Assembly (NCBI GenBank): GCA_035717485.1
Contig: DASTIQ010000044.1
Span: forward strand, 3,791 to 67,790
DNA length: 64,000 nucleotides
From: Thermoanaerobaculia bacterium
GTDB lineage: Bacteria; Acidobacteriota; Thermoanaerobaculia; UBA5066; DATFVB01
Direction of reading: 5' to 3'
Position 1 is the stretch's first letter; each line of letters starts with the position of its first letter. Below, one piece after another: positions 40,486-62,450 of this stretch. The translations under genes were made by a program, and so were the position numbers. The notes beneath the pieces are model-generated. The model was not told the origin of the DNA and did not search any database. It saw nothing but the letters and a program-made list of their open reading frames with translations.

Positions 40486-40547
40486 CGCCGTGCTCCTGCC
40501 CAACCCACCTCCGGGGCGCGCGAGCAGCCTCGCGGGGCGCGCCTCGC

Positions 40548-40577
40548 TTGACAATACCGCAATCTTTTCTATGCTTC
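40548..40577 (+). promoter_or_regulatory. sigma70-like promoter candidate (TTGACA-N16-TATGCT) in a local low-GC patch upstream of cysK
   Basis: cTTGACAataccgcaatcttttcTATGCTtcc; AT-rich island in a 70% GC background, about 120 nt upstream of cysK. Confidence 0.35.
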
Positions 40578-40696
40578 CGGCGTGCCTGCCCGCCGCGCCT
40601 GTCCCCGCTGTCGCTCCACCCCGTAGCGCCCGGGCGGCTGACCACGTGTCGACGAGCCCGGATTGACCGGGCTCTTTTATTTGGGGAGAGGTGCCC

Positions 40697-42474: not shown

Positions 42475-42519
42475 ATGCCGGCCGGAGGTCGCCGGGTAAC
42501 TTCCCTCTCGGAGGCACTC

Positions 42520-44343
42520 ATGGCCACGATCGATCCGGATCTCCCCGTCAAGGACCTCCTCGAGCGATTGCCGGAAATCCGGCCGGTGCTCGCGGCCTTC
42601 GACATCGATACCTGCTGCGGGGGACAGCATCCGCTGAAAGAGGCGTGCATCGCCCGGGGCGTCCCGCTCGAGGAGGTCCTCCGAGAGATCGGCCACATCC
42701 TTCCGGAGCCCGCCGGCGGCAGAACGCTCCGGGCCGTCCCCGCGCCGGGGGGCGATCTCGTCATCCCCGCGATGTCGATCCGGGAGATCGTCCGGCGGTT
42801 CCCGTCGACCGCGGCCGTGCTCGAGAAGCACGGGCTCGGCGACTGCGGGGGAGAGGACGGGCCCGACGAGCCGCTCGGGTGGTTCGCCACGGTCCACCGC
42901 ATCGCCCTCGGCCCGCTGATGGCCGACGTCAACGCCGCCGCGGCGCGCGACGGCCGCAAAGCTCCGGCGGCTTCCACGCCGAAGGCTCCGCCCCGTCCGT
43001 TCTCACCCGAGTTCATCGTCGGTTCGCTCGTCCTGACGCTGACTCTGGGCGCCACCACCGGGATGATCAACCTCCTCCGGATCGCGGCGGGGGGAGACGT
43101 GCCGTTCTCCCATCGCCAGATGCACGCGCACACGCAGATCCTCGGATTCGCGGCACTTTTCCTCATGGGGATCGCGTTTCACGCGCTCCCGCGCATCTCG
43201 GGAGTCGGCGGCGGTCCGCCCCGCTCCTCGAAGGCGACGTTCTGGCTGATGGCGGGCGGCGTGATCCTTCGGAACTTCGGGCAGCCGTTCAACCTCGCGC
43301 CGATCGGGCGAATCGCATCGCTGCTGTCGGGCGTGGCGGAGCTGGCGGCGGGCTGCCTCTTCGCGATCTTCGTCGCGGACCTGATTCGTCGCGCTCCGGC
43401 CGGCAAATACGGGAAGAAGGATCCTTTCCTCGTCCTGCTCGGATTCGGGACGACGTTCTTCCTGGCGGCCCTCGTCGTGAATGCCGCCCAGAGCGTCTGG
43501 CTCGCCGGACACCTCGAGACCGCGCTGCCGGCGGCGCTGGTCGACCCGTTCTACTTCGTCGCGCTGTACGGATTCCTGCTGGGGTGGGTGTTCGCCTTCG
43601 CGCACCGCGTCGTCGCTCTCTTCCTGGGCCTCGAGGCGCCGGGACCGAACCCGGCCCGCGCCGCGCTCGTTCTCCAGACGCTCGGCGTCGCGACGTTCCT
43701 CGCCGCCGGGATCCCCGGCCTTTCGAATCCGGCCGCCGCGCTCCTGCGGGACGCGGGAATGGCGGGCGTGGCCCTCGCCGCCATCGTCTTCGTCGCCGGA
43801 GCGAAACTCCTCGGCCGCCCGAAGCTTCCCGCGCTCGCTCCTCCCGGCAATCCGCTGTTCGCCATCCGGGCGGCGTTCGTCTGCCTGATGCTCTGGGCGG
43901 TCCTGGAGCTCGGCGCGATCGTCGTCGCCCGGACCACCGTGTTCCCGGCCCAGAACCTCTGGTGGGCGGATGCGGCGCGCCACGTCTTCACGATCGGGTT
44001 TCTGACGCTGATCATCGTGGGGATGAGCCTCCGGATCCTCCCGGTGTTCTCCGGAAAGACGCTCTGGTCGCCGAAGATGGCGTACGCCACGTACGCGCTG
44101 ATCCTGGCGGGGGTGGCGCTGCGGCTCCTCCAGTACCCGGCCGCGTTCCACGCGAAGCTCTACGAAGTCGGGTCCTGGATGGGCGTCTTCGTCGTGGGCG
44201 GTCTCGTCCTGTTCGCGGTCAACCTCGTCCGGACGATGCGCGCCCGGCCTCCGGCGCGCTCGACGCTTCCGGTCGCGCCCCCGGCGACCCCGGCCGCCTC
44301 CCCGGCGCCGTCGCGGTTCGTTTCCCGGCTGCCGGTCCGATGA
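42520..44343 (+). CDS. DUF1858-like redox domain fused to an NnrS family haem-copper membrane protein
   Basis: N-terminal about 70 aa LPVKDLLERLPEIRPVLAAFDIDTCCGG (DUF1858/ScdA-N-like), then a polytopic His-containing membrane domain typical of NnrS. Confidence 0.65.
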   Translation: MATIDPDLPVKDLLERLPEIRPVLAAFDIDTCCGGQHPLKEACIARGVPLEEVLREIGHILPEPAGGRTLRAVPAPGGDLVIPAMSIREIVRRFPSTAAVLEKHGLGDCGGEDGPDEPLGWFATVHRIALGPLMADVNAAAARDGRKAPAASTPKAPPRPFSPEFIVGSLVLTLTLGATTGMINLLRIAAGGDVPFSHRQMHAHTQILGFAALFLMGIAFHALPRISGVGGGPPRSSKATFWLMAGGVILRNFGQPFNLAPIGRIASLLSGVAELAAGCLFAIFVADLIRRAPAGKYGKKDPFLVLLGFGTTFFLAALVVNAAQSVWLAGHLETALPAALVDPFYFVALYGFLLGWVFAFAHRVVALFLGLEAPGPNPARAALVLQTLGVATFLAAGIPGLSNPAAALLRDAGMAGVALAAIVFVAGAKLLGRPKLPALAPPGNPLFAIRAAFVCLMLWAVLELGAIVVARTTVFPAQNLWWADAARHVFTIGFLTLIIVGMSLRILPVFSGKTLWSPKMAYATYALILAGVALRLLQYPAAFHAKLYEVGSWMGVFVVGGLVLFAVNLVRTMRARPPARSTLPVAPPATPAASPAPSRFVSRLPVR

Positions 44344-44781: not shown

Positions 44782-45714
44782 GTGTCCTACGCGGGAGCGA
44801 CCGTCTTTTGCGCGTTCGGGCTCGGCTACCGTTACTCGATGTGGCTCCGCCGCCCGCCGACCCGCCTCTTCTGGTTCCGCGGCTGGCGGCTCTTCCTCGA
44901 TCCCCGGCGGCTGCCGAGGAACGCCGCCCGTCTCGTCTCGCTCTTCTGGAACAACATCCTCGCCCAGACCTTCATCCGCCGGCGATCGCGCGTCCGATGG
45001 GCGGCGCACTGGCTGATCTTCTGGGGGTGCATTCTCGCGGCGGCGGTCACGTTCCCTCTCTCCTTCGGGTGGATCCGCTTCGAGACCCCGCGCGATTCCC
45101 AGAGCGTGTACCAGGCATACGTCTTCGGCATCCACGTCTTTTCGTTCCCGCTCGCGAGCATCGTCGCGCCGCTCGTTTTCAACGTGCTCGACATCTCGGC
45201 CTTCCTCGTTCTCGGGGGCATCTTCTTCGCTCTCTGGCGCCGCGGCCGGGATCGGGGCGCCTTCGCGGTGCAGCAGTTCGCCAACGACCTCCTCCCGCTT
45301 CTCCTGCTCTTCGCGGTTTCGGCGACCGGCCTCTTCCTCACCGCCTCGACGCACTTCATGAACGGCTTCCATTACGTCTTCCTGTCGCAGATCCACGCCG
45401 TGACGGTGATCTTCACGCTCCTCTATCTCCCGTTCGGCAAGTTCTTCCACATCTTCCAGCGTCCGGCGCAGCTCGGCGTGGCGTATTACAAGAAGATCGG
45501 GGCGGAGGAGGCGGCGGCGCGGTGCGCCGTGTGCGGCGAGGCGTTCGCGTCCGTGATGCACCGCGAGGACCTCAAGACGGTCGAGAGCGCGCTGGGGATC
45601 CGGTATGCGCTCGAGTCGGGCGGCCATTACCAGGACGTCTGCCCGTCCTGCCGGCGGAAAACGCTCGCCGTCGTTCAGGACGGGCTGTGGCGCGCCGGGA
45701 CGCGGGAGGTCTGA
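44782..45714 (+). CDS. NarI-like cytochrome b membrane subunit (respiratory nitrate reductase gamma family) with a Cys-rich C-terminal tail
   Basis: [17 protein letters not shown] aligns with the NarI TM1 region. The [10 protein letters not shown] motif and conserved His in TM2/TM5-equivalent helices are present. C-terminal CAVCGE...CPSCRRK. Start uncertain (see findings). Confidence 0.6.
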
Positions 45715-47936
45715 TGGCGAAGCTTCCGGCCCCCCTTTCGCAGATCGTGGATCGTTTCGGCCCGCACACCAAGGGAGTTCCGGCGGGTGGATGGGCGCCG
45801 ATCGGAGAGCCGGACCGATTCGTCAAGACCCACTGCTGCTTCTGCGGCCAGCAGTGCGGGATCCAGCTGAAGGTCAAGGACAACAGGGTCGTCGGATTCG
45901 AGCCGTGGGAGGACTTTCCGTTCAACGCCGGCAAGCTCTGCCCGAAAGGCGTCAAGCGATACATGCAGGACGAGCACCCGGACCGGCTCCGGTCGCCGCT
46001 CGAGCGCGTCGAAGGGGAGGGCTTTCGGCCGGTCTCCTGGGACCTCGCCCTCGATCGCACCGCGAAGGAGATCCGCCGCATCCAGGAGCGGTACGGCGAC
46101 GACGCCTTCGCGGTGCTCACGGGAGCGTCGCTGACCAACGAGAAGGCCTACCTGATGGGGAAGTTCGCGCGCGTCGCGGTCCGCACCGCGAACATCGACT
46201 ACAACGGACGGCTCTGCATGGTGTCGGCCGCCGCGGCGTCGAAGAAGGTCTTCGGGATCGACCGGAGCGCGAATCCGTGGAGCGACATCCCGAAGGCGAA
46301 GGCGATCCTCGTCGCCGGCGCCAACGTCGCCGACTGTGCGCCGATCACGACCGACTACCTCTGGCAGGCGCGCGAGAACGGGGCGAAGATCATCGTCCTC
46401 GATCCCCGGATGACCCCGATCGCGCGCACGGTGGATCTCTTCATCCCGGTTCGCCCGGGCGGCGACATCGGGATCTTCAACGGGATGCTCCACGTGATGA
46501 TCGAGCGAGGGTGGGTCGACCGCGAATTCATCTCGGAGCACACGACCGGATTCGAGAAGGTCGAGGAGTCCGTCCGCAAGTACACGCCGGAATACGCGGG
46601 CAGGATCGCGGGGGTGCCTCCCGCGATGATCGTGAAGGCCGCGGAGATCTGGGGACCCGCGGAGACGAGTTTCCTCCTCCATGCGCGCGGCATCGAACAC
46701 CACTCGAAGGGCGTCGAGAACTGCATGGCGGCGATCAACCTCGTCGTCGCGACCGGGCGGATCGGCCGCGAAGGGTGCGGCTACGCCATGATCACGGGGC
46801 AGGGGAACGGCCAGGGGGCGCGGGAGCAGGGGCAGAAGTGCGACCAGCTCCCCGGCGGGCGCGACATCGAGAACCCCGACCATCGCCGCTTCATCGCGGA
46901 AGTCTGGGGGGTCCCGGAGGAGTCGATCCCGCACAAGGGTCTGTCGGCGGTTCCCCTCCTGGAGGCGGTCCACGCCGGCAAGATCAAGGGGCTGCTCCTC
47001 ATCTGCTTCAATCCCATGGTTTCGCTCCCCGACCAGAATTTCATCCGGGAAGCGCTCGAGAAGCTCGAGTACTTCGCCGTCATCGACTTCTTCCTCTCCG
47101 AGACGGCGCGGTTCGCGGACGTCGTCCTCCCCGGCTCGCTCATGGAGGAGGACGAGGGGACGACGACCAGCGTCGAGGGAAGGGTGATCCATCACCGGAA
47201 GGCGGTCGAGCCGCCGGCCGGCGCGCGGGAAGACTGGCGGATCGTCTGCGATCTCGCCGCGCGGCTCGGGGCCGGGGTGAAGTTCCCGTACGGCTCGCCG
47301 CGGGAGATCTTCGAGGAGCTCCGCACCGCGTCGAAGGGGGGCGTCTCCGACTATTTCGGCATCACGTGGGAGAAGATCGACGCGCAGAAAGGGGTCTTCT
47401 GGCCCTGCCCGTCGCTCGATCACCCCGGGACCCCGCGACTCTACGAAGGGGCGCGATTCGGCCATCCCGACGGCCGGGCGCATTTCCAGGCCGTCGAGTG
47501 GCGGCCGGCGGCCGAAGAGCCGGACGCCGAATATCCCGTGATCCTCACGACCGGCCGCGTGGTGTCCCAGTATCTCTCGGGGACCCAGACGCGGCGGATC
47601 GCCGGGCTCATGGCCCAGGAGCCGGAACCCTTCTGCGAGATCCACCCCAACCTCGCCGCCCGGTACGGGATCGAACCGGACGGGTTCGTCAGCGTCGAGA
47701 GCCGCCGCGGATCGACGGTCGTCCGCGCGCGGATCGTCCGGACGATCCGGCCCGACACGGTCTTCGTGCCGTACCACTGGCCCCTCGCGCGCGCCGCGAA
47801 CAACTGCACGATTCGGGCGATCGATCCCGTGTCGAACATCCCGGAATTCAAGATCTGCGCCGTCCGCATCTCGGCGGCGCCGCGCCCGGACGATGCGATC
47901 GCCCGGCTCCCGCCGGAAGCCGGGGGAATCGCGTGA
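45714..47936 (+). CDS. molybdopterin (bis-MGD) oxidoreductase catalytic subunit, about 740 aa, no Tat signal (nitrate-reductase / arsenite-oxidase-like)
   Basis: GGGAGG then ATG 45714 overlapping the upstream TGA. N-terminal [10 protein letters not shown] (C-x2-C-x3-C) FeS motif, MopB-type body. The track ORF 44808..47936 is an N-extended fusion of frames. Confidence 0.8.
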
Positions 47937-48553
47937 GCGAGCTCGCCTTCTTCATCGACTATTCGCGGTGCATCGGATGCCGGGCGTGCGTGCAGGCGTG
48001 CGAGGAATGCGACACCCATCGCGGAGTCTCGATGATCCATCTCGAGACGATCCGCCGCGCCGATACCGTTCAGACCGCTCCGCAGGTCTGCATGCACTGC
48101 GAAGATCCGATCTGCGCGCGCGTCTGCCCGGCCGACGCGATCAAGCAGACCCCCGACGGCGTGACCCAGTCGGCGCTGAAGCCCCGCTGCATCGGATGCA
48201 GCAACTGCGTCCTGGCGTGCCCCTTCGGCGTGCCGAAGTACTTCGGCGCGATCGACCAGATGATGAAGTGCGACTACTGCTACGACCGGACGAGCGCGGG
48301 AAAGCGCCCGATGTGCGCGACCGTCTGTCCTTCCCAGGCGCTCGCGTTCACGACGCGCGAGGAGATCGAGAGGAAGCGCCAGGGAACCGCGATCAACCTC
48401 TGGAAGTTCGGCGGCGAGGTCGTCCGAACGAAGATCTCGGTGATCGTTCCCTCGGGAGTGTCCGAGATCCGGATCGGCGAATCGGCACTTTCCCGTGCGG
48501 GAGGCCCCGCCGGCGCGACCGAGGACGTGGCCGTGCTGCTGGGAGAGATCTGA
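47933..48553 (+). CDS. four-cluster 4Fe-4S ferredoxin-type electron-transfer subunit (complex iron-sulfur molybdoenzyme beta-like)
   Basis: GTG 47933 overlaps the MopB stop (GTGA). Four Cys clusters: [43 protein letters not shown]...CATVCP. Confidence 0.8.
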
Positions 48554-48554
48554 C

Positions 48555-49052
48555 GTGGAGGAGCGCGAGGGAGCCGGCCCGCGCTGGCGCGAGGACTTCC
48601 CGATCGCGTGGGAGCGGGACCACTACGTCACGCGCCGCGAGCTCGCGAAGTTCCTGACGCTCGGCTCGGCTCTGCTGGCGGGCGCCAGCGCCGTGATCGC
48701 GCTGGCGGGACGGCTGTGGAAACCGGCCCGCCGCCGGCGCACGCGGATCGCGAGCGCGGCCGCGGTTCCGCGCGGCGGCTCGCTCCTTTTCCGGTTCCCG
48801 ACCGACGAAGACCCCTGCATCCTCCTCCGCGCGCCGGACGGCTCCTTCGAGGCCTACTCGCAGGTCTGCACGCATCTTTCCTGCGCCGTCGTCTACCGGC
48901 CCGAGGATCGGACGCTCGCCTGCCCCTGTCACAAGGGGGTATTCACGTGCAGCGAAGGGCGGCCGATCGCAGGACCGCCGACGCGCCGGCTCCCGCGGAT
49001 CGTCCTCGACGTCCGCGGCGACGACGTTTTCGCGACCGGAGTGGAGCTGTAG
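48555..49052 (+). CDS. Rieske 2Fe-2S protein with twin-arginine (Tat) signal
   Basis: TRRELAKFLTLGSALLAGASAV Tat-like motif. Rieske boxes CTHLSC and CPCHKG. Start GTG 48555 (alternative ATG 48495 would overlap the FeS gene). Confidence 0.7.
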   Translation: MEEREGAGPRWREDFPIAWERDHYVTRRELAKFLTLGSALLAGASAVIALAGRLWKPARRRRTRIASAAAVPRGGSLLFRFPTDEDPCILLRAPDGSFEAYSQVCTHLSCAVVYRPEDRTLACPCHKGVFTCSEGRPIAGPPTRRLPRIVLDVRGDDVFATGVEL

Positions 49053-49062
49053 GGAGATCGCC

Positions 49063-49308
49063 GTGGAGACGCGCAAACAGGGAACGACCCTCTTCACCGC
49101 GATCGCGGTGCTCATCGGCATGCTCGTCGTGATCCAGCTCTGGCTGGTCGCGGCGGCCCTCGAGGCGCTCCTCTCGGGGAATCGCGGCGCGCTGCTGCCC
49201 GCGGCGATCGCCTCCGTCGTCCTCCTACTCGTCAACGCCGGGCTCCTCCTCTACATCGTCCGGTTCGACGAGCGGATCCGGCGCCTCGAGGCGCCTCCGC
49301 GTGACTGA
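49063..49308 (+). CDS. small two-helix membrane protein (81 aa)
   Basis: Two hydrophobic helices. Its stop overlaps the GTG start of the HPP gene. Confidence 0.4.
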   Translation: METRKQGTTLFTAIAVLIGMLVVIQLWLVAAALEALLSGNRGALLPAAIASVVLLLVNAGLLLYIVRFDERIRRLEAPPRD

Positions 49309-49936
49309 GCGGCGGCCGCCGCTCTCGCTTCTCGAGCCGCAGGTCGTACGGGGGCTCGCGGAACGGCTGCGGATCGCCCGGCTCCTCCGGCGCTTTCCCG
49401 AGCGGAACGTCTGGGCGGCATTCATGTTCGTCAACGGATTCATCACGATCGCGCTGCTCGCCGCCCTCGCGATGGTTTCGCGGACGCCGTTCGTCTTCCC
49501 GTCGCTCGGACCGACGGCGTTCCTCTTCTTCTTCACGCCGACGCTTCCGACGGCGAGCCCGCGGCATTCGATCTACGGGCACGCGATCGGGATCGCCTGC
49601 GGATACGGGGCTCTGCTCGCGACCGGGCTCCAGCACGCGCCTCCGGCGATGGTCGCCGGGGTGGACTTTCGGCGCGTGCTGGCGGCGGCCCTCTCGCTCG
49701 CCGCGACGGGCGCGCTCATGATCCTCTTCAAGGCGGCGCATCCGCCGGCAGGCGCCACGACGCTCATCATCTCGCTCGGAATCGTGACGAGGCCGTCCTA
49801 TCTTCTGGTCATCGAGATCGCGGTGGCCCTTCTGACGATCCAGGCCATCGCGATCAACCGCCTCGCCGGCATCGACTACCCCCTGTGGTCCCGACGAGCG
49901 GAGCCGTCTGGCAGAACGGACGGCCCGCTGGCGTAG
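49301..49936 (+). CDS. HPP family integral membrane protein (family implicated in nitrite transport)
   Basis: 211 aa, four hydrophobic segments, HPP motif context ...KAAHPPAGATTLI.... Confidence 0.6.
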   Translation: MTERRPPLSLLEPQVVRGLAERLRIARLLRRFPERNVWAAFMFVNGFITIALLAALAMVSRTPFVFPSLGPTAFLFFFTPTLPTASPRHSIYGHAIGIACGYGALLATGLQHAPPAMVAGVDFRRVLAAALSLAATGALMILFKAAHPPAGATTLIISLGIVTRPSYLLVIEIAVALLTIQAIAINRLAGIDYPLWSRRAEPSGRTDGPLA

Positions 49937-50035
49937 TCGTGGTCCTCCCGGGACCAATGACTCTTATGATGCATTTGAGCTATTCCCTGCGCCCCGATCC
50001 GGCAGGAGGATGGGCCCAAGAACAGGAGAGGTGAA

Positions 50036-51442
50036 ATGGAGAGAAACCACCGGCGAATCCTCGTGGCTCTTCCCCTGGGAATGGCGATATTCCTCGCCCT
50101 GGGGGCCCCGCGGCAGGCGGGCGCGGTCCCCGTCTTCTCCCGGAAATACCAGACTTCGTGCCAGACCTGCCATGCGATCTTTCCGAAACTGAACCCCTTC
50201 GGCGAAGCCTTCCGCTTGAACGGATACCGGATGCCGATGGAAACGCCGGAGCTGGTCAAGCAGCCCCCGGTGTCGCTCGGCTCCGAGGCGTATGAGCGGA
50301 TCTGGCCGGCGATGGTCTATCCGAGCGACCTGCCGTCGTTCGTGCCGCTCGCGATCAACGTCAAGATGGCCGACATCTACGCTTCGAGCCACGACGACAG
50401 CGGCAAAACGATCACGCACAACGACTTCCAGTTCCCGCAGGAAGCAAACCTCTTCTCGGCCGGCACTCTCGGATCGCATTTCAGCTTCTTCGGCGAGGTG
50501 ACGTACGCGGAGAGACCCGACGGCGGCACGGACGTCGAGATCGAGCACGCGCGGCTCGACCTGGATTCGGCGTTCGGGCCGGAGCATCTCTTCAACTTCA
50601 AGATCGGCAAGTTCGCGCCCGACCTCTACGACGGCTTCCAGGAAATGTGGCTGATGACCGACAACGGCGTCGACTCGCTCTTCGCCTTCAGCCCGATCGG
50701 GATCCACGGCGGGACCGGACTCTCCGAGGAAGGGCCCGGCGTCAGCCTGCCGGACCGGATGCGCGCGATCGAGATGTACGGCGTGGCCGCGCATCGGTTC
50801 TTCTACACGATCGGCTACGGGAGTCCGATCGGGCCGGGCGGCCCGAACGACACGTTCGGGAGCAGCAGCCGGAAGGACGTCTACGCCCGGATGGACTACA
50901 AGTTCGGCGGGATGGGGCTCGACGGCGACACGACGGGGGTCACGCTGCCCCCGGAGAACTGGCGCGAGCATTCCCTCCGCATCGGCGTCCTCGGCTACTA
51001 CGGCGACGGCTCTCAGGCCGACCCCTTCGACATCACGGACGAGGAGGGGAACGCGTTCAAGATGCGCGACACCCATTACGGGAGGATCGGCGCCTACGCG
51101 TCCCTCTACGTCGGCGACCTGAACCTCTTCGGCGTCGCGCTCCACGGGACCGACAAGCTCCAGCTCAGCGACCCCGACACGCTGACCGAGATCAGCACGA
51201 CCACGCGGACGTACGACGCGTGGTTCGCCCAGGCGGACTACGTCATCGTGCCGCCGTTCCAGCTCTCGCTCCGCTACGAGAACCTCCGGGTCGCCGATCC
51301 CGTCACGCCGACGATCAAGACCCTGAACGCGAACGCGAGCTTCCTGATCCGGGCCAACATCAAGGCCATGATCGAATACAACCGGGACCTCCGCGATTCC
51401 GAGAATTACACGCTCGCGACGGTCCTCCGATTCGCTTATTGA
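50036..51442 (+). CDS. Cyc2-like fused monohaem cytochrome c / outer-membrane beta-barrel (porin) protein
   Basis: Signal peptide, then a single CQTCH haem motif followed by PKL within 12 residues. About 420 aa of alternating amphipathic beta-strand-like sequence ending in an aromatic C-terminus (...LRFAY). Confidence 0.65.
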   Translation: MERNHRRILVALPLGMAIFLALGAPRQAGAVPVFSRKYQTSCQTCHAIFPKLNPFGEAFRLNGYRMPMETPELVKQPPVSLGSEAYERIWPAMVYPSDLPSFVPLAINVKMADIYASSHDDSGKTITHNDFQFPQEANLFSAGTLGSHFSFFGEVTYAERPDGGTDVEIEHARLDLDSAFGPEHLFNFKIGKFAPDLYDGFQEMWLMTDNGVDSLFAFSPIGIHGGTGLSEEGPGVSLPDRMRAIEMYGVAAHRFFYTIGYGSPIGPGGPNDTFGSSSRKDVYARMDYKFGGMGLDGDTTGVTLPPENWREHSLRIGVLGYYGDGSQADPFDITDEEGNAFKMRDTHYGRIGAYASLYVGDLNLFGVALHGTDKLQLSDPDTLTEISTTTRTYDAWFAQADYVIVPPFQLSLRYENLRVADPVTPTIKTLNANASFLIRANIKAMIEYNRDLRDSENYTLATVLRFAY

Positions 51443-51456
51443 AGGAGAAAGGAACC

Positions 51457-52038
51457 ATGAAGAAGATCCTGATCGCCCTGATCGTCGCCGCTTCGTCGGC
51501 GCTCCCCGCGGCCGCCGGAGACATCCACGGCAAAGTGACCTGCAAGGGCTCCTCGACGTGCGCCGACACGGTCGTCTACGTCGCCGCGATCCCCGGCAAG
51601 ACCTTCCCCGCGCCGGCGGCGCACGCGAAGATGAACCAGCTCAACATGAAGTTCGTCCCGCGAATTCTCCCCGTTCTCGAAGGCACCACCGTCGACTTCC
51701 TGAACTCCGACGCCGTGCTGCACAACGTCTTCACCCCGGACGCTTGCGCGGACAAGTTCAACCTCGGCACCTGGCCGAAGGGAGAGACGAAGACCTACAC
51801 GTTCAAGAAGGAATGCGCAGCGGCCCTGCTCTGCAAAGTGCACCCGGAGATGGAGGCGTATGTCGTCGCCGTTCCGACGCCGTACTATGCGCAGGCCAAG
51901 GCCGACGGCAGCTACCAGATCGCCGACGTGCCCGACGGGAGCTACACGCTGAAAGTCTGGCATCCGCGGCTCAAGGGCAAGGAAAAGCCGGTGAAGGTCG
52001 CGGGAGCGACGGAAGCGGACTTCGAGATCGCCCGCTGA
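51457..52038 (+). CDS. periplasmic type-1 copper (amicyanin/pseudoazurin-like cupredoxin) protein
   Basis: AAGGAGAAAGG RBS, signal peptide MKKILIALIVAASSALPAAA. Candidate copper ligands His in VLHNVF and C-x2-H-x2-M (CKVHPEM). Confidence 0.6.
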   Translation: MKKILIALIVAASSALPAAAGDIHGKVTCKGSSTCADTVVYVAAIPGKTFPAPAAHAKMNQLNMKFVPRILPVLEGTTVDFLNSDAVLHNVFTPDACADKFNLGTWPKGETKTYTFKKECAAALLCKVHPEMEAYVVAVPTPYYAQAKADGSYQIADVPDGSYTLKVWHPRLKGKEKPVKVAGATEADFEIAR

Positions 52039-52042
52039 CGCC

Positions 52043-53038
52043 GTGAGAAACCGGGTGGGTCGGCCGCGCCTTCTCTTCCGCATCGCCGCCCTTCTCCCTC
52101 TGCTGGCCGCCCTCGGGTGGGCGGCCGGCGAGCGGGGAGGCGACCGAGGAGGAAACCGTCCCGCGAGCCACGTTCCGGAAAAGCCGACCTCAACGGTCGG
52201 CGAGAGCTGGGTGCGCCATCTCCGGATCTCTCTCGAGAACACGACGCTCGGGGGGATCGGCCGCTGGGGACCGTCGAGCCCGCAGCCTACCGGGTCCGTT
52301 TCGGCTCCCCGGGAGTCGCTCGGTTCCCCGTTCGTCCTGAGCGGGAAGGACCTCTACCGGCTGAACTGCCAGGCATGCCATCGCGAAGACGGAAGCGGAG
52401 CGCCTCCCGAGGTCCTCCCCGTGACGAGCCTCGCGCGCGCGACGTCCCGGCAATACTTCCGGGACAAGATGAAGGAACGGGGGCTGCCGGTCGACGAGGC
52501 CCAGCTCGCCAAGAACGCGGCGGAGGCGGAAGCGTCCCTCCGCAAGAGGATCCGGAGCGGCGGCGAGAAGATGCCGCCGTTCCCGCAGCTCGACCACGCC
52601 GAGACCGAGAGCGTGATCGCGTACGTCAAGCAACTCTCCGGAGTGCCGGAGCCGGGGCCCCCTCCCGCGCCCCTCGAGGAGCCCGTCAACCGCGTCGGCG
52701 AGCTCCTCGTCAAGGGAACGTGCCACGTGTGCCACGACGCCTCGGCGACGCCGACCACGGCGTTCGAATACCGCGTCGGCTACGGAGAGCCGCCCCCTCT
52801 CTCGTTCTTCACGGAGCAGCGAACGCCCGCCCAGCTCGTCCGGAAGGTCCGGGAGGGGCTCGCGGAACCGAGCGTTTCCGCCCGGCACGGACGCATGCCG
52901 ATCTTCGACTATCTCACGCCCGAGGAGGTCACCGCGGCCTACATCTACCTCCTCACGGAACCTCCGGGACGCGGCGCCGCCGCATCCCCGGGAGCGTCGG
53001 TGCCGGCGGCGGCCGGAGGAGGGCGCCCGAAACTATAA
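52043..53038 (+). CDS. dihaem cytochrome c (periplasmic)
   Basis: GTG 52043, signal peptide, two CxxCH motifs (CQACH, CHVCH). Confidence 0.7.
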   Translation: MRNRVGRPRLLFRIAALLPLLAALGWAAGERGGDRGGNRPASHVPEKPTSTVGESWVRHLRISLENTTLGGIGRWGPSSPQPTGSVSAPRESLGSPFVLSGKDLYRLNCQACHREDGSGAPPEVLPVTSLARATSRQYFRDKMKERGLPVDEAQLAKNAAEAEASLRKRIRSGGEKMPPFPQLDHAETESVIAYVKQLSGVPEPGPPPAPLEEPVNRVGELLVKGTCHVCHDASATPTTAFEYRVGYGEPPPLSFFTEQRTPAQLVRKVREGLAEPSVSARHGRMPIFDYLTPEEVTAAYIYLLTEPPGRGAAASPGASVPAAAGGGRPKL

Positions 53039-53047
53039 TCGCGGGTC

Positions 53048-53734
53048 GTGCCCCCACGGCCTCCGATTCCTTTCGAGGCGATCCCGATCCTCGCGTCGCT
53101 CCGGCCCGAGGACCGCGACGCTCTCGCGCCGCTGTGCGAGATGCGCGGCTACGAGAAGGGGGAGACGATCTTCCGGGAGGGGGATCCCGGCGAGCGCATC
53201 CACTTCGTGTTCATCGGCCGCGTCAAGATCGTCAAGGCCGGCCCCGGGCGAGACCTGATCCTGGAGATCCTCGGCCCGGGGGAGCCGGTCGGCGCGGTCG
53301 CGGCGTTCGAGCGCAAGGCCTTTCCGGCGACGGCCGTCGCGCTCGAAGCCTGCGGGGTCCTCTCGATCCCGGAGCGACAGTTCTTCGAGCTCCTGGAGAA
53401 GCGCCCGGAGATCACCCGCCGGCTCTTCGCCGGGCTGACGATGCGGCTCATGAACCTCAACCGCCATCTCGCCGACATGCTGGGCTCGGTCGAGTATCGC
53501 GCCGCGCGGCTCTTCCTGACGCTCGCCGCGAAGATGGGCCAGAAGCGCGACGGCGCGGTCTTCATTCCGGTCGCGCTCTCGCGCCAGGAGCTCGCCGACC
53601 TGATCGGGACCACGATCGAAACGGCCATCCGCGTGATGAGCCGGTGGCAGAAGGACGGGCTCGTCGAGACGGAGAAGAACGGCTTCCTTCTTCTCCGGCC
53701 GGCGGCGCTTCGCGAGATCAGCTCGGTGGCGTGA
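53048..53734 (+). CDS. Crp/Fnr family transcriptional regulator lacking an N-terminal Cys cluster (Dnr/NnrR-like)
   Basis: cNMP-binding-like domain (GETIFREGDPGERIHFV...) and C-terminal HTH (SRQELADLIGTTIETAIRVMS). No FNR-type Cys motif. Confidence 0.75.
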   Translation: MPPRPPIPFEAIPILASLRPEDRDALAPLCEMRGYEKGETIFREGDPGERIHFVFIGRVKIVKAGPGRDLILEILGPGEPVGAVAAFERKAFPATAVALEACGVLSIPERQFFELLEKRPEITRRLFAGLTMRLMNLNRHLADMLGSVEYRAARLFLTLAAKMGQKRDGAVFIPVALSRQELADLIGTTIETAIRVMSRWQKDGLVETEKNGFLLLRPAALREISSVA

Positions 53735-54248
53735 GGGCGCGGGCCAGCCGGCGGGCGCGGGCGCGCTTGCCCGCGACGGAGACGGCGAGATCGGCCAGCG
53801 TGCGCCGTTCGAGCTGGCGATCGAGAAGCGCCCGCGCCCTCTTCCAGACCGGGTGAGCGGGACACGGCGTCTCGTCCGTGCACTCGGAGAACCCCAGGAG
53901 ACACCGGCCGCCGAGTCCGAATCCGTCGATCGCCCGCACGACCTGGAGCACCGTGATCCGATCCGCGGGCCGCGAGAGCACGATGCCGCCCAGCGGGCCG
54001 CGGCGCGTCTTCACGATGCCGGAATTTCGCAGCTGCTGGACGATCTGGGCGAGCGCGGTCGTGGAAATTCCGACGTCGTTCGCGAGCTCTTCCTGGACGA
54101 CCATCCTTCCCGGATTGGCGTGTTCCGCCGCCGCGAGCCGCTCCGCCGCCCGCAGCGCGTGCTGGCAGGTCCGGGAATAGAGAAGGGGGCGCCCCTCGGC
54201 GGCCGCGTCGTAACGAGGTCGGGCGGGCATGCCGCCGAACCATAGCAC
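53718..54248 (-). CDS. Rrf2 family transcriptional regulator with three-Cys Fe-S cluster motif (IscR/NsrR-like)
   Basis: HTH LANDVGISTTALAQIVQQLRNSGIV and C-x7-C-x5-C (CLLGFSECTDETPC). Alternative start at 54230. Its 3-prime end overlaps the crp gene convergently. Confidence 0.75.
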   Translation of the reverse strand: MLWFGGMPARPRYDAAAEGRPLLYSRTCQHALRAAERLAAAEHANPGRMVVQEELANDVGISTTALAQIVQQLRNSGIVKTRRGPLGGIVLSRPADRITVLQVVRAIDGFGLGGRCLLGFSECTDETPCPAHPVWKRARALLDRQLERRTLADLAVSVAGKRARARRLARALTPPS

Positions 54249-54254
54249 GGCTTG

Positions 54255-54275
54255 ACTCCCGTCCGGCCCGGGAGT
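54255..54275. promoter_or_regulatory. inverted repeat ACTCCCG-N7-CGGGAGT in the divergent rrf2 / multihaem-cytochrome intergenic region (candidate Rrf2 operator)
   Basis: 7-bp perfect arms. A second palindrome ATCAAttcTTGAT lies at 54283-54295, and TTGAC at 54252-54256. Confidence 0.35.
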
Positions 54276-54305
54276 ACCGTTTCATCAATTCTTGATGGAG
54301 AACTC

Positions 54306-56366
54306 ATGAATAGGCCGTGCGTCCCGCGCACCGCGGAAGAGAGGGCCGCCGGATGGGGAGGCGCGCTCGCCCGTTTCACGGGCGGAACGCTCGCCTATCT
54401 CCTGCTGAGCGGCCTCGCGATCCGGTTCGTTTCGTTTTCGGCGCTCGCGGAATGGACGGTGATCGTCCACAGCGCGGCGGGGGTCCTCTCGTTCGCGCCG
54501 CTCGGCGTGTACCTCTTCCGGCACTGGCGCGCCTACCGCGCCGACGCCCTCACCCCGGCAAAGGTGCTCGGGTGGTTCGCGTTCGCGGCCGTCGCCGCGG
54601 CGGAGATGTCGGGATTCTGGGCGGCGGGCCTCGCGCTCTTTTCCCGCCGGGTGCCCGGCTGGGTCCGGGACGTCCACCTGATCCCGTCGATCGCGGTCGG
54701 CGTCTTCGCCGTCGCTCACCTCTGGCCGATCTGGAAGCGCAAGGCCCTCTCGCCCGACCTCGCCCGCCGGGCGCGGGCGCTCCGCGAGGGGTACCTCGCG
54801 TCGACGGTCCTCGTTTCCGCCGCGCTCCTGCTCGCCGCATTCCCGGCGACGCTCGCCCAGCGGTCGCCGCGCCGCGCCGGATCCTTCCCGAAGGATTATC
54901 GGATGCCCTTCGGGAAGAACCGTCCCTTCGCGCCCAGCCTCGCGCGCACCGAGCACAACGGAGCGCTGGCGCCCGAGGCGCTCTCGGGATCCGCGTCGTG
55001 CGGCTCGTCGGGGTGCCATGAGTCGATCTATCGGGAGTGGTCCGTGTCCGCCCACCGATGGGCGGCGCTCGACCCCGCGTTCCAGCGCGTCCAGGAGGAG
55101 ATGGCTCGCCAGAACGGGCCGGAGTCGACCCGTTACTGCGGCGGCTGCCACGATCCCATCTCCCTCTTCTCGGGGTCGAAGACCGTCTTCAAGGCGGACC
55201 TGACGAGCGATGCCGGCATGACCGAGGGGGTCTCGTGCCTCTCCTGCCATTCCGTCGGAAAAGCGGACGTGCAGGGAAACGCGAACTACGTCGTCCATCC
55301 GCCGGAGCGCTATCTCTTCGAGACGTCCCGCTCGCGCGCGGCGCGCCTCGTCTCCGATTTCCTGATCCGCGCCTACCCGAAGCACCACGTCGCGTCCCTC
55401 GAGAAGCGCCTGTTCAAGACGCCGGAGTACTGCGCCGCGTGCCACAAGCAGTTCGTCGACCAGGAGGTCAACAACTTCGGGTGGGTACAGCTTCAGAACC
55501 AGTACGACAACTGGCGAAAGAGCAAGTGGAACCACCCGGGCGATCCGCGCCGCACGATCGAGTGCCGCGAGTGCCACATGCCTCTCCTCGGCGGCCCCGA
55601 GCCCGCTTCGGGGGACACGGCGGACTACAACCGCACGGCGGCCGACGGACAGCACCGCAGCCACCGATTCCTCGGCGCGAACCAGTACATGCCCGCGCTC
55701 CTGAAGCTCCCGGGGGGCGAACGGCAGGTGGAACTCGTCGACCGCTGGCTGCACGGCTCGTACCCCGTCCCGGAGATCGCGTCGAAATGGGCCGCCGGCC
55801 CGGCGGTGTCGCTCGCCCTCGACGTCCCCTCGCACGCCGACGCGGGCCGCCCGCTGCGGGTGCGGGCGATCATCACGTCGAACAAGGTGGGGCACGACTA
55901 TCCCACGGGTCCGCTCGACCTGATCCAGTCGTGGATCGAGATCGACGTCCGCGATGCCTCCGGGGCCGTCGTCTTCACGTCGGGGCGTCCGGACGCGAAG
56001 AAGATGATCCCGCCCGGTTCCTTCCTCTTCAAGGCGGAGCCCGTCGACCGCTACGGCAATCTCATCGATCGCCACAACCTCTGGGAGATGGTCGGCGTCC
56101 GGTACCGGCGCAGCCTCTTCCCGGGATACTCCGACGTGGCGGAGTACACCTTCACGTGCCCCTCCTCGGGTGGCACGCCCGCGCCCGTTCGCGACCTCGT
56201 GGTTCCCGACCCGCCGGTCGGCGCCGTCTCGATCGAGGCGATCCTCCACTACCGCAAGCTCGACCAGTTCCTCGTCGATTTCCTTTTCCCGGGCAAGGGG
56301 CTCTCGGCGCCGATCACCGATCTCGCCCGGGCCCGGGCGGTCGTCCACATCGTTCCCGCCGCATGA
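54306..56366 (+). CDS. membrane-anchored multihaem cytochrome c (N-terminal four-helix His-containing domain plus periplasmic domain with four CxxCH and one CxxxxCH)
   Basis: GGAG then ATG 54306. TM helices with His (IVHSAAGVL, AVAHLWPIW). Haem motifs CGGCH, CLSCH, CAACH, CRECH and CGSSGCH. Confidence 0.7.
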   Translation: MNRPCVPRTAEERAAGWGGALARFTGGTLAYLLLSGLAIRFVSFSALAEWTVIVHSAAGVLSFAPLGVYLFRHWRAYRADALTPAKVLGWFAFAAVAAAEMSGFWAAGLALFSRRVPGWVRDVHLIPSIAVGVFAVAHLWPIWKRKALSPDLARRARALREGYLASTVLVSAALLLAAFPATLAQRSPRRAGSFPKDYRMPFGKNRPFAPSLARTEHNGALAPEALSGSASCGSSGCHESIYREWSVSAHRWAALDPAFQRVQEEMARQNGPESTRYCGGCHDPISLFSGSKTVFKADLTSDAGMTEGVSCLSCHSVGKADVQGNANYVVHPPERYLFETSRSRAARLVSDFLIRAYPKHHVASLEKRLFKTPEYCAACHKQFVDQEVNNFGWVQLQNQYDNWRKSKWNHPGDPRRTIECRECHMPLLGGPEPASGDTADYNRTAADGQHRSHRFLGANQYMPALLKLPGGERQVELVDRWLHGSYPVPEIASKWAAGPAVSLALDVPSHADAGRPLRVRAIITSNKVGHDYPTGPLDLIQSWIEIDVRDASGAVVFTSGRPDAKKMIPPGSFLFKAEPVDRYGNLIDRHNLWEMVGVRYRRSLFPGYSDVAEYTFTCPSSGGTPAPVRDLVVPDPPVGAVSIEAILHYRKLDQFLVDFLFPGKGLSAPITDLARARAVVHIVPAA

Positions 56367-58879
56367 GCGGCTCGCGCCTCCGACGCTTCACTCACCCGCG
56401 CGCCGTGATCGCCGCGGCGCTGGCGGTGGTCGCGGCGGCGGCGGCGCTCTACGCGACGCACGGAGGAGAGGAAGCCCCCTACCGCCCCGGAGAGGCCGTC
56501 GAAGGAATCACCGACGTCAATCGCCACCAGGTCTCCGGCGCGGACTGGGGGATCCGCTGGACCGACGTCGCCGCGAAGTCCGGCCTCGCCTTCCGGCACT
56601 TTTCGGCGGGGGCGCGGTCGACGCAGCTTCCCGAGGACATGGGCTCGGGGCTCGCCTTCGGCGACTACGACGGAGACGGGTGGTGGGACCTCTTCGTGGC
56701 CGACACGACCGGACCGCTGACGATGAGCGCGAGCGAGCTCGCGAGCGCTCGCGGCGGCTGCCGTCTCTACCACAACCTCGGAGGCGTGTTCACGGACGTG
56801 ACCGAGGAGGCGGGTCTGGGAGGGCTCCGCGGGAACTATCTCGGCGCGGCGTGGGGCGATTACGACAACGACGGCCGACCCGACCTCGTCGTGACCTCCT
56901 TCGGGGGGATCCGTCTCTTCCACAACCGCGGAGACGGGACGTTCGAGGACGTGTCGCACGCGTCGGGCGTCGACGCGTTCCGCGGCTTCTGGACCGGCGC
57001 GACATGGGGAGATGCCGACGGGGACGGGCGTCTCGATCTCTACGTGTGCGGTTACGTCGACTACCGTTTCGACCCCGCCGATGCGGGGCGATCGTCGAAA
57101 TTCGGCGCCGCCGACAGCCCTTTCACCATCAACCCTTCGTCGTATCCGCCGATCGCGAACCTGTACTTCCACAACGAGGGAGGGGGCCGGTTCCGGGAGA
57201 TGGCCGCCGAGGCCGGAATCTCCGACCCGGAGGGACGCAGCCTGTCGGCGACGTTCGCCGATTTCGACAATGACGGGCGGTCCGATCTCTACGTCGCCAA
57301 CGACGTGTCCGAAGGGGCGCTCTACGTCAACGCGGGCGGCGGCCTGTTCGCCGAACGGGGGCACGACGCGCACGTCGCCGACTACCGCGGCGCGATGGGG
57401 ATCGCGGTCGGCGACGTCGACGGCGACGGCGCGCTCGACATGTTCGTCACCCACTGGATCGCGGAAGCGAACGCGCTTTACCTCAACCGGCTCTTCGCCG
57501 GGCCCTCGCGGCGGCTCGACTTCGAGGACGCGGCGGAGCGTTTCGGGCTCGGCGAGATCTCGACCGACGACATCGCCTGGGGCGCCGCCTTCCTCGACGT
57601 CGACGGCGACGGTTTCCCGGATCTCGCCGTGGCGAACGGCTCGACGTTCGAGGACGCCGCCGACCGTCGCCGGCTCGTCCCGATGCCGATGCGACTGTTC
57701 CGGAACCTCGGCGGCCGGAGGTTCACCGACGTCGCTCCGGCTTCCGGCGAGGTCTGGACCACCCCACGGGTGCATCGCGGCCTCGCCGTGGCGGACGTGG
57801 ACGGAGACCTCCGGCAGGAGATCGCCGTGGTCGTCCACGGCGGAGAATTGATCCTCCTGAAGGCGGCCGGGGGGCCCGCGAACCACCGAATCGCGTTTCG
57901 ACTGGAGGGAACGCGGTCGAACCGGTCGGCGTACGGCGCCCGGGTCACGCTGCTCGCCGCGGGGAGGACGCAGATTCGCGAGATCGGCGCGGGGTCTTCC
58001 TATCTTTCCCAGAACGCCCCGGAGGCCGTCTTCGGCCTCGGCGCGGCGGCGAGCGCCGACCGGGTCACGGTCCGGTGGCCGTCCGGCGCCGCGCAGACGT
58101 TCACGGACCTCGCCGCCGATCGCGCGTACCGGCTCAAGGAAGGGCGGGGGGCGCCCGAGGCGATCCCGGGAGGGCGGGGCGGCGAACTGGCCTTCTGGGA
58201 CGCCTACGCGCGGGCGCGGGACCGCGCGGGCCGCGGAGATGCGGTCGGCGCGATCGCGGGCTACCGCGAGGCGCTGGCCGTGAACCCGAGGCACGAGGAC
58301 AGCCTCTATGCGCTCGGGAACCTCCTCCTCGAGAGCGGCGACCGGTCCGGCGCCCGAAAAGCGTTCGAGACGCTCGCGGCGTTCGCCCCGCGGAGCGCCC
58401 GAATGCACGGGGCGCTCGGCGACCTGCTTGCCGAAGAGGCCGCCGGGAGCGGCGCCGGGTTCGACGCGGCAAGAACGCATTACCGCGCCGCCGGCGAGTT
58501 GAACGGCGAAGAGACGGGCTGGGTACTCCGGACGGGGGAGATTTCGCTCGCCGAGGGGAAGACCCGGGACGCGGCGGTCGCGTTCCGGAACGTCCTCTCG
58601 ACGAATCCCCGCTCGTTCGAAGCGCTCTATCTCTCCGGTTTTCTCGCGTACCGCCGGGGCGATCTCACCGAAGCCGGGCGCCTTCATGCGCACGCCTTCG
58701 CGGCGATCCCCCTTCCGGCCGGGCCGGCGTCGGCCGAGGGGGACGCGCGCCGCGCGGGATCCGCGCTTCCGCGGCGGGGCGTCTTCGCCGCGCACTGGAG
58801 ACGCCTGGCATCGGGTCCGATGACGATGGAAGAAGCCTACGCGGACCTGTCGCGGCGGATCGGGAAACCTTCCCGCTGA
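56363..58879 (+). CDS. FG-GAP repeat / ASPIC-UnbV (CRTAC1-like) protein with C-terminal TPR repeats
   Basis: ATG overlaps the upstream stop (ATGA). Repeated DxDGDG.D...V motifs (GDYDGDGWWDLFV, GDYDNDGRPDLVV, GDADGDGRLDLYV...), then RVTLLAAGRTQIREIGAGSSYLSQ ASPIC region and TPR-like tail. Confidence 0.75.
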   Translation: MSGSRLRRFTHPRAVIAAALAVVAAAAALYATHGGEEAPYRPGEAVEGITDVNRHQVSGADWGIRWTDVAAKSGLAFRHFSAGARSTQLPEDMGSGLAFGDYDGDGWWDLFVADTTGPLTMSASELASARGGCRLYHNLGGVFTDVTEEAGLGGLRGNYLGAAWGDYDNDGRPDLVVTSFGGIRLFHNRGDGTFEDVSHASGVDAFRGFWTGATWGDADGDGRLDLYVCGYVDYRFDPADAGRSSKFGAADSPFTINPSSYPPIANLYFHNEGGGRFREMAAEAGISDPEGRSLSATFADFDNDGRSDLYVANDVSEGALYVNAGGGLFAERGHDAHVADYRGAMGIAVGDVDGDGALDMFVTHWIAEANALYLNRLFAGPSRRLDFEDAAERFGLGEISTDDIAWGAAFLDVDGDGFPDLAVANGSTFEDAADRRRLVPMPMRLFRNLGGRRFTDVAPASGEVWTTPRVHRGLAVADVDGDLRQEIAVVVHGGELILLKAAGGPANHRIAFRLEGTRSNRSAYGARVTLLAAGRTQIREIGAGSSYLSQNAPEAVFGLGAAASADRVTVRWPSGAAQTFTDLAADRAYRLKEGRGAPEAIPGGRGGELAFWDAYARARDRAGRGDAVGAIAGYREALAVNPRHEDSLYALGNLLLESGDRSGARKAFETLAAFAPRSARMHGALGDLLAEEAAGSGAGFDAARTHYRAAGELNGEETGWVLRTGEISLAEGKTRDAAVAFRNVLSTNPRSFEALYLSGFLAYRRGDLTEAGRLHAHAFAAIPLPAGPASAEGDARRAGSALPRRGVFAAHWRRLASGPMTMEEAYADLSRRIGKPSR

Positions 58880-61149: not shown

Positions 61150-61206
61150 ATGATGCAAATCATCCAGAACGCCCGAAAAACCCGCGTTTCTTATGACGGA
61201 AATCAT
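61150..61206. promoter_or_regulatory. two FNR/Dnr-type boxes (aTGATgcaaATCAt at 61150-61163; aTGACggaaATCAt at 61193-61206) upstream of the nosZ-linked cytochrome gene
   Basis: Each matches TTGAT-N4-ATCAA at 8/10 positions. Box 2 is centred about 41 nt upstream of ATG 61241 and about 68 nt upstream of ATG 61268. Confidence 0.35.
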
Positions 61207-61267
61207 GGGGCGCCCGGCGGGGCCGCCCTACGCTCGCGGCATGAAACAGAACACGAGCGGAGGATGT

Positions 61268-62422: not shown

Positions 62423-62450
62423 TCGATCGTCGAAAGGAAAGAGGAAGAAC

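Follow-up and report, generated by a model that had tools for sequence, protein, structure and literature searches.

A Cyc2-family haem-porin operon with a conserved cupredoxin partner in a Thermoanaerobaculia genome, a possible inward electron conduit

The 64,000-nucleotide stretch of a Thermoanaerobaculia genome analysed here (assembly GCA_035717485.1, contig DASTIQ010000044.1, positions 3,791 to 67,790; hereafter the window, GC content ~69%) contains an operon that encodes a Cyc2-family haem-porin, a blue-copper protein, a dihaem cytochrome c and a regulator. The Cyc2-like gene and its copper-protein neighbour form a conserved module found mostly in Acidobacteriota. The operon would act as a Cyc2-type conduit carrying electrons from outside the cell into the periplasm, most likely from Fe2+, and on via the copper protein and the dihaem cytochrome c to periplasm-facing terminal enzymes, a reading on which we are evenly divided. 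The four open reading frames (ORFs) lie on the plus strand at 50036-51442, 51457-52038, 52043-53038 and 53048-53734 and show a strong coding signal, with a GC content at third codon positions (GC3) of 0.85-0.92. The gaps between them are 14, 4 and 9 nt, and the four genes are therefore treated as one operon-like unit.

The first gene (50036..51442, plus strand) encodes a fused monohaem cytochrome-porin of 468 amino acids (aa) and begins with an ATG preceded 5 nt upstream by GGAGAGG; its coding status is supported by a GC3 of 0.91 against 0.44 at second positions (GC2) and by more than 1,300 homologues. Residues 1-30 (50036..50125, +), read by eye from the sequence, form a predicted Sec signal peptide, MERNHRRILVALPLGMAIFLALGAPRQAGA followed by VP with cleavage at AGA/V, which has a basic n-region and a hydrophobic core and is modelled as a helix over residues 3-21. 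It is followed by the Cyc2 signature AVPVFSRKY (50123..50149, +), by the only CxxCH in the protein, the haem c attachment motif CQTCH at residues 42-46 (50159..50173, +), and by PKL, an instance of the PXL motif, at residues 50-52 (50183..50191, +). The protein ends in ...LRFAY. The signal peptide, CQTCH, PKL and aromatic C-terminal residue described in the first-pass annotation of this DNA are thus all present.

Keffer et al. 2021 recognise Cyc2 by a signal peptide, one CXXCH with AXPXFAR[Q/K][T/Y] upstream and PXL downstream, and a minimum length of 365 aa with a 16-strand porin like OprP/OprO; their screening pattern for the upstream motif is PXFAR[Q/K][T/Y] (PMC8406198). The window protein satisfies the length at 468 aa, and its full signature reads AVPVFSRKY-QTS-CQTCH-AIF-PKL, where that of the wider family is A[IV]PxFARKY-xTS-CxTCH-xxx-PKL. 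The upstream motif matches six of the seven specified positions, a serine in place of alanine causing the literal pattern to fail by one residue; FSRKY is the usual form among Thermoanaerobaculia orthologues. Across the family, 213 of 370 members fit the literal published pattern and spacing, and 337 of the 370 do so when A/S is allowed. The spacing between CxxCH and PxL, which had been singled out for checking, agrees with the published definition, the proline being the fourth residue after the haem motif (H46-AIF-PKL). C42, C45 and H46 are invariant in three family alignments (A1-A3); in alignment A3, P50 is invariant, and K51 and L52 are at least 90% conserved.

Searches of the 468-aa protein against Pfam and NCBIfam return no match; no curated model there covers Cyc2. 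Its closest 120 homologues are 68-93% identical, are all labelled 'hypothetical' and come from metagenome-assembled genomes (MAGs) of Thermoanaerobaculia or other Acidobacteriota. Among 1.84 billion cluster representatives, a profile search retrieves 3,289 clusters at E ≤1e-3 and 267 at E ≤1e-30, and the members of 10 representative clusters carry no informative names. The Cyc2 reference for comparison is a Ralstonia solanacearum megaplasmid gene found by tblastn; Ralstonia is among the genera with many Cyc2 homologues according to Keffer et al. (PMC8406198). The Ralstonia homologue reads AVPAFARQT-GMA-CMACH-VSF-PEL, in a register identical to that of the window protein, and the family hidden Markov model (HMM) gives it 56 bits (E 1.5e-13 at a nominal Z of 1e6 sequences). 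Practically all of this score comes from the first 69 residues, the cytochrome domain, and the barrel sequences give no significant alignment. Cyc2 has been described in just these terms, as a conserved cytochrome domain joined to a poorly conserved barrel.

The barrel is nevertheless predicted structurally. An AlphaFold2 model built from 134 sequences (30-93% identity) has a predicted local distance difference test score (pLDDT) of 88.9 and a predicted template modelling score (pTM) of 0.85; it places 16 long beta-strands between residues 105 and 467 (50348..51436, +; strands assigned with DSSP), with a small helical domain surrounding the haem motif. It replaces a first model from a shallow alignment (51 sequences, 67-93% identity), which had a pLDDT of 60 and a spurious C-terminal helix. 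Foldseek matches of the model in the PDB are 16-stranded general porins at E values of 6e-13 to ~5e-11, including 8jto (6e-13), OmpF, OmpU, PhoE (1pho, 7e-12) and OprP (2o4v, 2e-11, over 461 aligned columns), and OprP and PhoE-type porins are the structural neighbours already reported for Cyc2 (PMC8406198). The sequence profile of the protein returns from the PDB only non-significant chitoporin matches (E ~0.6). The barrel-topology prediction recommended by the first-pass annotation yields a 16-strand barrel. Taken together, a signature that fits the definition of Keffer et al., a modelled porin fold and an N-terminal domain homologous to that of the Ralstonia protein bear out the earlier identification of a Cyc2-type fused cytochrome-porin, and membership of the Cyc2 superfamily is well supported by sequence comparison and modelling.

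With the established members of that superfamily, including Acidithiobacillus ferrooxidans Cyc2, Mariprofundus Cyc2 PV-1 and Leptospirillum Cyt572 (McAllister 2020, Keffer 2021), the window protein shares a signal peptide, a single N-terminal CxxCH, an AXPXFAR[Q/K][T/Y]-type motif three residues before it and PXL after it, some 440 mature residues, a 16-strand porin like OprP/PhoE, and clear sequence similarity in the cytochrome domain only. It differs in having FSRKY, and its wider clade FARKY, in place of FAR[QK][TY]; in a barrel that is unusually well conserved within the clade; and in an obligate neighbour that is a cupredoxin and not a cytochrome. The protein probably falls in a Cluster 3-like group, by analogy with the FeGenie-annotated Cyc2 of an Acidobacteriota MAG that was placed in Cluster 3 (PMC9671151).

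The cupredoxin, here called Cup, is a predicted periplasmic protein of 193 aa with a signal peptide (51457..52038, +) and matches to the Pfam domains Copper-bind, CarboxypepD_reg and fn3_3. A type-1 copper domain spans approximately residues 50-138, and a CarboxypepD_reg-like beta-sandwich follows at approximately 139-190, possibly including an N-terminal strand at 22-45; it is the C-terminal 55 residues that match CarboxypepD_reg/fn3_3. The copper ligands are H89 (51721-51723), C126 (51832-51834), H129 (51841-51843) and M132 (51850-51852), all on the plus strand, and show the C-x2-H-x2-M spacing. Among 71 Cup orthologues H89 is conserved in 97%, and C126, H129 and M132 in 100%. The match to PF00127 lies just above the gathering score (23.0 bits, cut-off 21.2). 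On its sequence, Cup is a cupredoxin with a complete and conserved type-1 copper site.

The kind of cupredoxin is less classical than first proposed. Cup shares with the amicyanin/plastocyanin-type blue copper proteins (PF00127) the His...Cys-x2-His-x2-Met ligand set and spacing, but the classical proteins lack the beta-sandwich to which Cup is joined, and Cup has no methylamine dehydrogenase context. It scores 16.6 bits on the amicyanin equivalog model TIGR02657, whose cut-off is 110.2, so that the description 'amicyanin-like' stands for the complete copper site and its ligand spacing and falls for equivalence to amicyanin. A profile of 49 Cup orthologues matches the cupredoxin extension of a copper nitrite reductase (9cck, 1.3e-10) and a Nitrosopumilus blue copper domain (5fc9, 2.3e-9) ahead of amicyanins (4e-7 to 3e-5) and plastocyanins, the two groups together spanning 4e-7 to 1e-4, and among its 60 PDB matches at E ≤1 there is no rusticyanin chain. 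The Cup family is very large, and its members are automatically annotated as 'plastocyanin' or 'carboxypeptidase regulatory-like domain-containing protein'.

The third gene (52043..53038, +) encodes a dihaem class-I cytochrome c of the c4-like kind, 331 aa long and with a signal peptide, as the first-pass annotation had proposed. Its two haem motifs are CQACH at residue 109 (52367-52381) and CHVCH at residue 227 (52721-52735), the Pfam domain Cytochrome_CBB3 matches in two stretches (4.5e-15), and candidate ligand methionines occur in GGEKMPPF and HGRMPIF. Its weak PDB matches are to dihaem QcrC.

An analogy with the A. ferrooxidans rus operon (cyc2-cyc1-...-rus) had been drawn for this gene set, and it holds for the types of component: an outer-membrane Cyc2, a periplasmic dihaem cytochrome c and a periplasmic cupredoxin are encoded together in both. 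It does not extend to descent. Cup is not rusticyanin, to judge by its PDB matches, and carries the extra CarboxypepD_reg-like domain, the dihaem cytochrome gives no PDB match to Cyc1, gene order and content differ, the window operon has no aa3 oxidase, and the host is a neutral-pH, high-GC Acidobacteriota organism. The rusticyanin analogy is functional and not one of orthology.

Comparison with relatives provides the evidence that Cyc2-like protein and Cup belong together. Scanning one genome per species yielded at least 600 stretches that encode RKYxTSCxTC; tblastn confirmed 580 of them, and the best 80 loci (numbered with the prefix L) were analysed. Most are from Acidobacteriota (Thermoanaerobaculia, Holophagae and Vicinamibacteria), with a few from other phyla, and the Holophagae loci include the cultured Geothrix terrae SG184 and G. 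oryzisoli SG189. Cup lies directly downstream of the Cyc2-like gene in 73 of the 80 loci, or 73 of the 75 with room for it on the contig, and the pairing is kept down to 31% Cyc2 identity. Genes near the Cyc2-like gene encode a cytochrome b in 50 of the 80 loci, a GltD-like Fe-S flavoprotein in 48, a Rieske protein in 46, and a multihaem cytochrome of ~670 aa in 40, while a PAS-LuxR regulator is found upstream in 36. The dihaem cytochrome c characteristic of the window is near the gene in 14 of the 80. The Betaproteobacterial Cyc2 homologues of Ralstonia and Ideonella share the N-terminal motif register, a similar length and the C-terminal aromatic residue, but have no adjoining Cup; a gene for a periplasmic c-type cytochrome lies immediately downstream instead.

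The dominant arrangement runs PAS-LuxR regulator, Cyc2-like protein, Cup, GltD-like Fe-S flavoprotein, Rieske protein, split cytochrome b, ~670-aa multihaem cytochrome and a small cytochrome c (L001, L002, L005, L007-L012, L019-L042 and others; for example L032:6001-13428 in Geothrix terrae). Both cultured Geothrix strains carry its stretch from PAS-LuxR to Rieske-cytochrome b (L032, L038). By its composition it resembles an 'uphill' electron-transfer unit: this Cup/GltD-like/Rieske-cytochrome b version is reminiscent of the A. ferrooxidans 'uphill' branch, as the window's version is of the cyc2-cyc1-rus set. Cyc2-like genes with a PAS-LuxR gene upstream are preceded by a two-box element, approximately TG(G/A)TGC..TTCCC-N4-5-..GAA(T/A)TGGTG.., in L002, L003, L005, L007-L012, L020, L032 and L038; it is a candidate, and probably the, binding site of the PAS-LuxR regulator. 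Several MAGs carry two copies of the Cyc2-Cup module (L015/L079; L022/L027). In one Acidobacteriota genome (L050:8203-8832) a second Cup-like gene, with a CarboxypepD_reg domain, is inserted between Cup and the dihaem cytochrome gene.

In the proposed path, the 468-aa protein would sit in the outer membrane as a 16-strand porin whose monohaem domain takes single electrons from dissolved extracellular species, most likely Fe2+. The electron would pass to Cup, the soluble periplasmic type-1 copper protein that is the conserved partner of this Cyc2 clade, and the dihaem cytochrome c would relay it from Cup to whichever terminal enzyme, reductase or oxidase, is active on the periplasmic side; genes for N2O reductase and other N-oxide enzymes are close by. 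We infer the Fe(II) substrate, the inward flow, the order of the carriers and the coupling to N2O or nitrate reduction alike. For direction, redox potentials offer a guide. Met-ligated type-1 copper centres, as in amicyanin and plastocyanin, usually lie at about +250 to +370 mV. Such a centre would follow naturally from a Cyc2 haem, that of Mariprofundus Cyc2 PV-1 being at +208 mV (PMC8406198). The chain would therefore run downhill from Fe(II) inward, and not outward to ferric minerals, and an inward direction is what this analogy suggests.

The reverse route deserves consideration for the company that the pair keeps. Electrons could travel from NAD(P)H or quinol through Rieske/cytochrome b or cytochrome c to Cup, the Cyc2-like haem and finally chelated Fe(III), humic quinones or Mn(III/IV). 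The hosts, cultured and uncultured, come from groups known for Fe(III) and humics reduction, such as Geothrix, and Thermoanaerobaculum, reportedly another Fe(III)- or humics-reducing group (Losey et al. 2013), is counted on the same side. A GltD-like, NAD(P)H-type flavoprotein, Rieske/cytochrome b and multihaem cytochrome follow the pair in 48 of the 80 loci and could in principle run forward. A type-1 copper centre at +250 to +370 mV would be a poor donor to most forms of Fe(III) and to humics, however. Keffer et al. allow for additional Cyc2 functions, but every characterised Cyc2 is an oxidase (Keffer et al.; PMC8406198), and in a view from the literature a monohaem enclosed within a small porin has no access to solids. 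We consider outward flow decidedly unlikely.

An inward conduit need not be fed by Fe(II). In 'Ca. Manganitrophus', Cyc2 homologues count as candidates for the role of Mn(II) oxidase; many organisms that bear Cyc2 do not oxidise iron; and MAGs of Acidobacteriota from soil and peat, habitats rich in humics, very commonly carry the family. The natural donor could thus be Mn(II), a reduced humic substance or a different one-electron donor in solution. Direct evidence favours none of these, and the Mn(II)/Mn(III) potentials would lie far above a chain at +200 to +370 mV; a donor other than Fe(II) appears unlikely, and we retain dissolved Fe2+ as the preferred substrate of the inward conduit.

The genes around the operon include those for candidate terminal enzymes. 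Upstream, a 622-aa fusion (42475-44343, +) joins ScdA_N, the N-terminal domain of the Fe-S repair di-iron protein, to DUF1858 and an NnrS membrane domain. It is followed by a nitrate-reductase-like block (44782-49936, +) encoding a NarI/QmoC-like membrane protein, a NasC-like molybdoenzyme (45714-47936), a 4Fe-4S subunit, a Rieske protein, a small membrane protein and an HPP protein. The molybdoenzyme scores 831 bits on the NasC model, below the cut-off, and has no signal peptide; it is therefore presumably cytoplasmic. Downstream of the operon are a convergent Rrf2 regulator gene (53718-54248, minus strand) and, at 54252-58879 (+), overlapping genes for a 704-aa membrane-anchored cytochrome and, after it, an 838-aa FG-GAP/ASPIC(UnbV)/TPR protein; a membrane domain of several helices forms the N-terminal part of the 704-aa cytochrome, which also carries five haem motifs, CX4CH being one. 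A variant radical-SAM gene (59870-61096, minus strand; NF045502, 176 bits; MSMEG_0568-like) is divergent from an operon that contains nosZ, encoding N2O reductase. In that operon, a 409-aa protein (61193-62422, +) consists of a dihaem cytochrome c with two CxxCH fused to a CuA-like cupredoxin (TIGR04246, positions 490-577) that matches the C-terminal CuA domain of NosZ. Its gene is directly upstream of nosZ and overlaps it, and the protein may serve N2O reductase as a dedicated electron donor. The nosZ gene itself (62412-63998, +) is cut off by the end of the window and gives nearly equal scores on the models for the TAT-dependent (twin-arginine translocation) form, 472 bits, and the Sec-dependent form, 449 bits.

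NnrS, the nitrate-reductase-like enzyme, Rrf2 and nosZ all lie within the same 22 kb as the operon, and the N-oxide genes noted earlier beside it (NnrS fusion, nitrate-reductase-like molybdoenzyme and nosZ) are confirmed. No nirK, nirS or nor was found among the window ORFs scanned with Pfam, a scan that left out two giant and several smaller ORFs. On the minus strand, two very long ORFs with coding-like GC3 occupy 21335-25738 (1,467 aa) and 31921-40950 (3,009 aa).

This setting also invites a reading without any bioenergetic role, in which the module would be a redox or metal sensor, or would protect against periplasmic nitric oxide (NO), reactive oxygen or Cu/Fe stress. The operon lies between NnrS, of a NO-stress protein family, and an Rrf2/NsrR-like regulator, with its own regulator besides, and an iron-sensing role has been suggested for Cyc2 in the literature. 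Set against this, the module is tightly and widely kept in operons with respiratory-type complexes (Rieske/cytochrome b, multihaem cytochromes and dihaem cytochrome c), and the Cyc2-like sequence is very strongly conserved by the standard of outer-membrane proteins (68-93% among relatives). We regard a sensory or protective function as very unlikely, and return to electron transfer as the preferred role.

The surroundings of the cassette vary among lineages. NnrS or Crp genes occur beside it only in the window, L067 and L075, and the NnrS fusion is syntenic with the Cyc2 cassette in both of the latter. L067, whose Cyc2-like protein is 83% identical to that of the window, has the order NnrS-Cyc2-Cup-dihaem-Crp-rSAM (rSAM, radical SAM), syntenic with the window. 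Relative to it, the window's nitrate-reductase-like block, an unusual assembly absent from L067, and its Rrf2/cytochrome/ASPIC block look like insertions flanking this core. The variant radical-SAM gene adjoins the Cyc2-Cup-dihaem cassette in L004 as well as in L067.

The last gene of the operon (53048..53734, +) encodes a 228-aa regulator of the Crp/Fnr family, with cNMP_binding (1e-20) and HTH_Crp_2 (4e-16) domains, and is syntenic in L067. It has only two cysteines, C30 and C101, and therefore lacks the FNR cluster (three N-terminal Cys plus Cys122), in agreement with the earlier description. The further label 'Dnr-like' is a guess: the best NCBIfam matches are generic and far below their cut-offs (CRP 69.8, FixK 59.8 bits), and the operon has no FNR/Dnr box in front of it. 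Control of the operon itself is the probable role of the Crp-family protein. A candidate site, for which the evidence is weak, is the octamer ATGATGCA at 49966..49973 (+), ~70 nt upstream of the operon. It has only two copies in the 64-kb window, both in promoter regions, and two copies were reached in 5 of 100 shuffles. The second, at 61150, lies within the near-palindrome ATGATGCAAATCAT (61150-61163) upstream of the cytochrome c/nosZ operon, which is the sole resemblance to an FNR/Dnr-like box. Upstream of the Cyc2 gene, TTGATGCATTTGAGCTATTCCC is conserved in L067. The two octamers may be sites of a shared regulator, a lead from sequence and not a result.

Several observations weigh against an Fe(II)-oxidising conduit coupled to N-oxide reduction. 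N-oxide genes are not a general flank of the dihaem-type cassette, other lineages showing housekeeping genes there (menaquinone synthesis, Rho, a tRNA synthetase, a short-chain dehydrogenase/reductase and others). A search for an FNR/Dnr box (TTGAT-N4-ATCAA, at most two mismatches) finds none upstream of the operon, here or in the 80 loci. No conserved Met or His is evident in the family alignments as a sixth haem ligand. A purely periplasmic chain from Fe(II) to NosZ would presumably not by itself build a proton gradient. The Geothrix hosts are known as reducers of Fe(III) and humics, and a FeGenie-based study of lake Geothrix MAGs listed no oxidative extracellular electron transfer genes for them. 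According to the family's own authors, it is for divergent, Cluster 3-like Cyc2 homologues that function is most uncertain, and the Fe(II) substrate and the physiology of the clade are accordingly put forward here as a hypothesis from sequence comparison. The rival readings still stand because several hosts are known metal or humics reducers and because the function of divergent Cyc2 homologues is openly uncertain.

Membership in the Cyc2 superfamily is well supported, but iron oxidation linked to denitrification stays at the level of a hypothesis because the N-oxide linkage is confined to one lineage and no FNR/Dnr box is found. Such a coupling, suggested in the first-pass annotation, was not upheld as a finding: its basis is gene adjacency in the lineage of the window, L067 and L075. 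On this lineage-specific adjacency, the operon may be coupled to the reduction of N2O or nitrate. For other bacteria, nitrate-dependent iron oxidation based on Cyc2 has been proposed before.

Cyc2 homologues in Acidobacteriota MAGs are already on record (PMC9671151). A literature search of incomplete coverage located no paper on a conserved Cyc2-cupredoxin pairing or on two operon types, which is not proof of their absence. A broader proposal can be made, in full unlikely to our minds: this large Acidobacteriota-centred clade, with its dedicated Cup in place of a cytochrome partner, would be an undescribed module for oxidising iron or another dissolved donor, feeding a Rieske/cytochrome b and GltD-like 'uphill' complex in most genomes and N2O or nitrate reduction in this Thermoanaerobaculia lineage.

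Cyc2 is the main genetic marker for inferring microbial iron oxidation, and the function of its divergent homologues is an acknowledged question. The clade described here accounts for matches in at least 580 genome stretches and 3,289 protein clusters, most of them from Acidobacteriota, and is accompanied by a conserved cupredoxin and defined downstream electron-transfer modules; it is present in cultured Geothrix species, and its function is therefore experimentally testable. If the module does not oxidise Fe(II), it would caution against reading every Cyc2 match as iron oxidation. If it does, Acidobacteriota would join the iron oxidisers, and in this lineage a link from Fe(II) to N2O, if true, would bear on N2O sinks in anoxic soils. 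Should the module both oxidise iron and feed N-oxide reduction, abundant soil and sediment Acidobacteriota would be unrecognised lithotrophic, partly N-oxide-dependent iron oxidisers.

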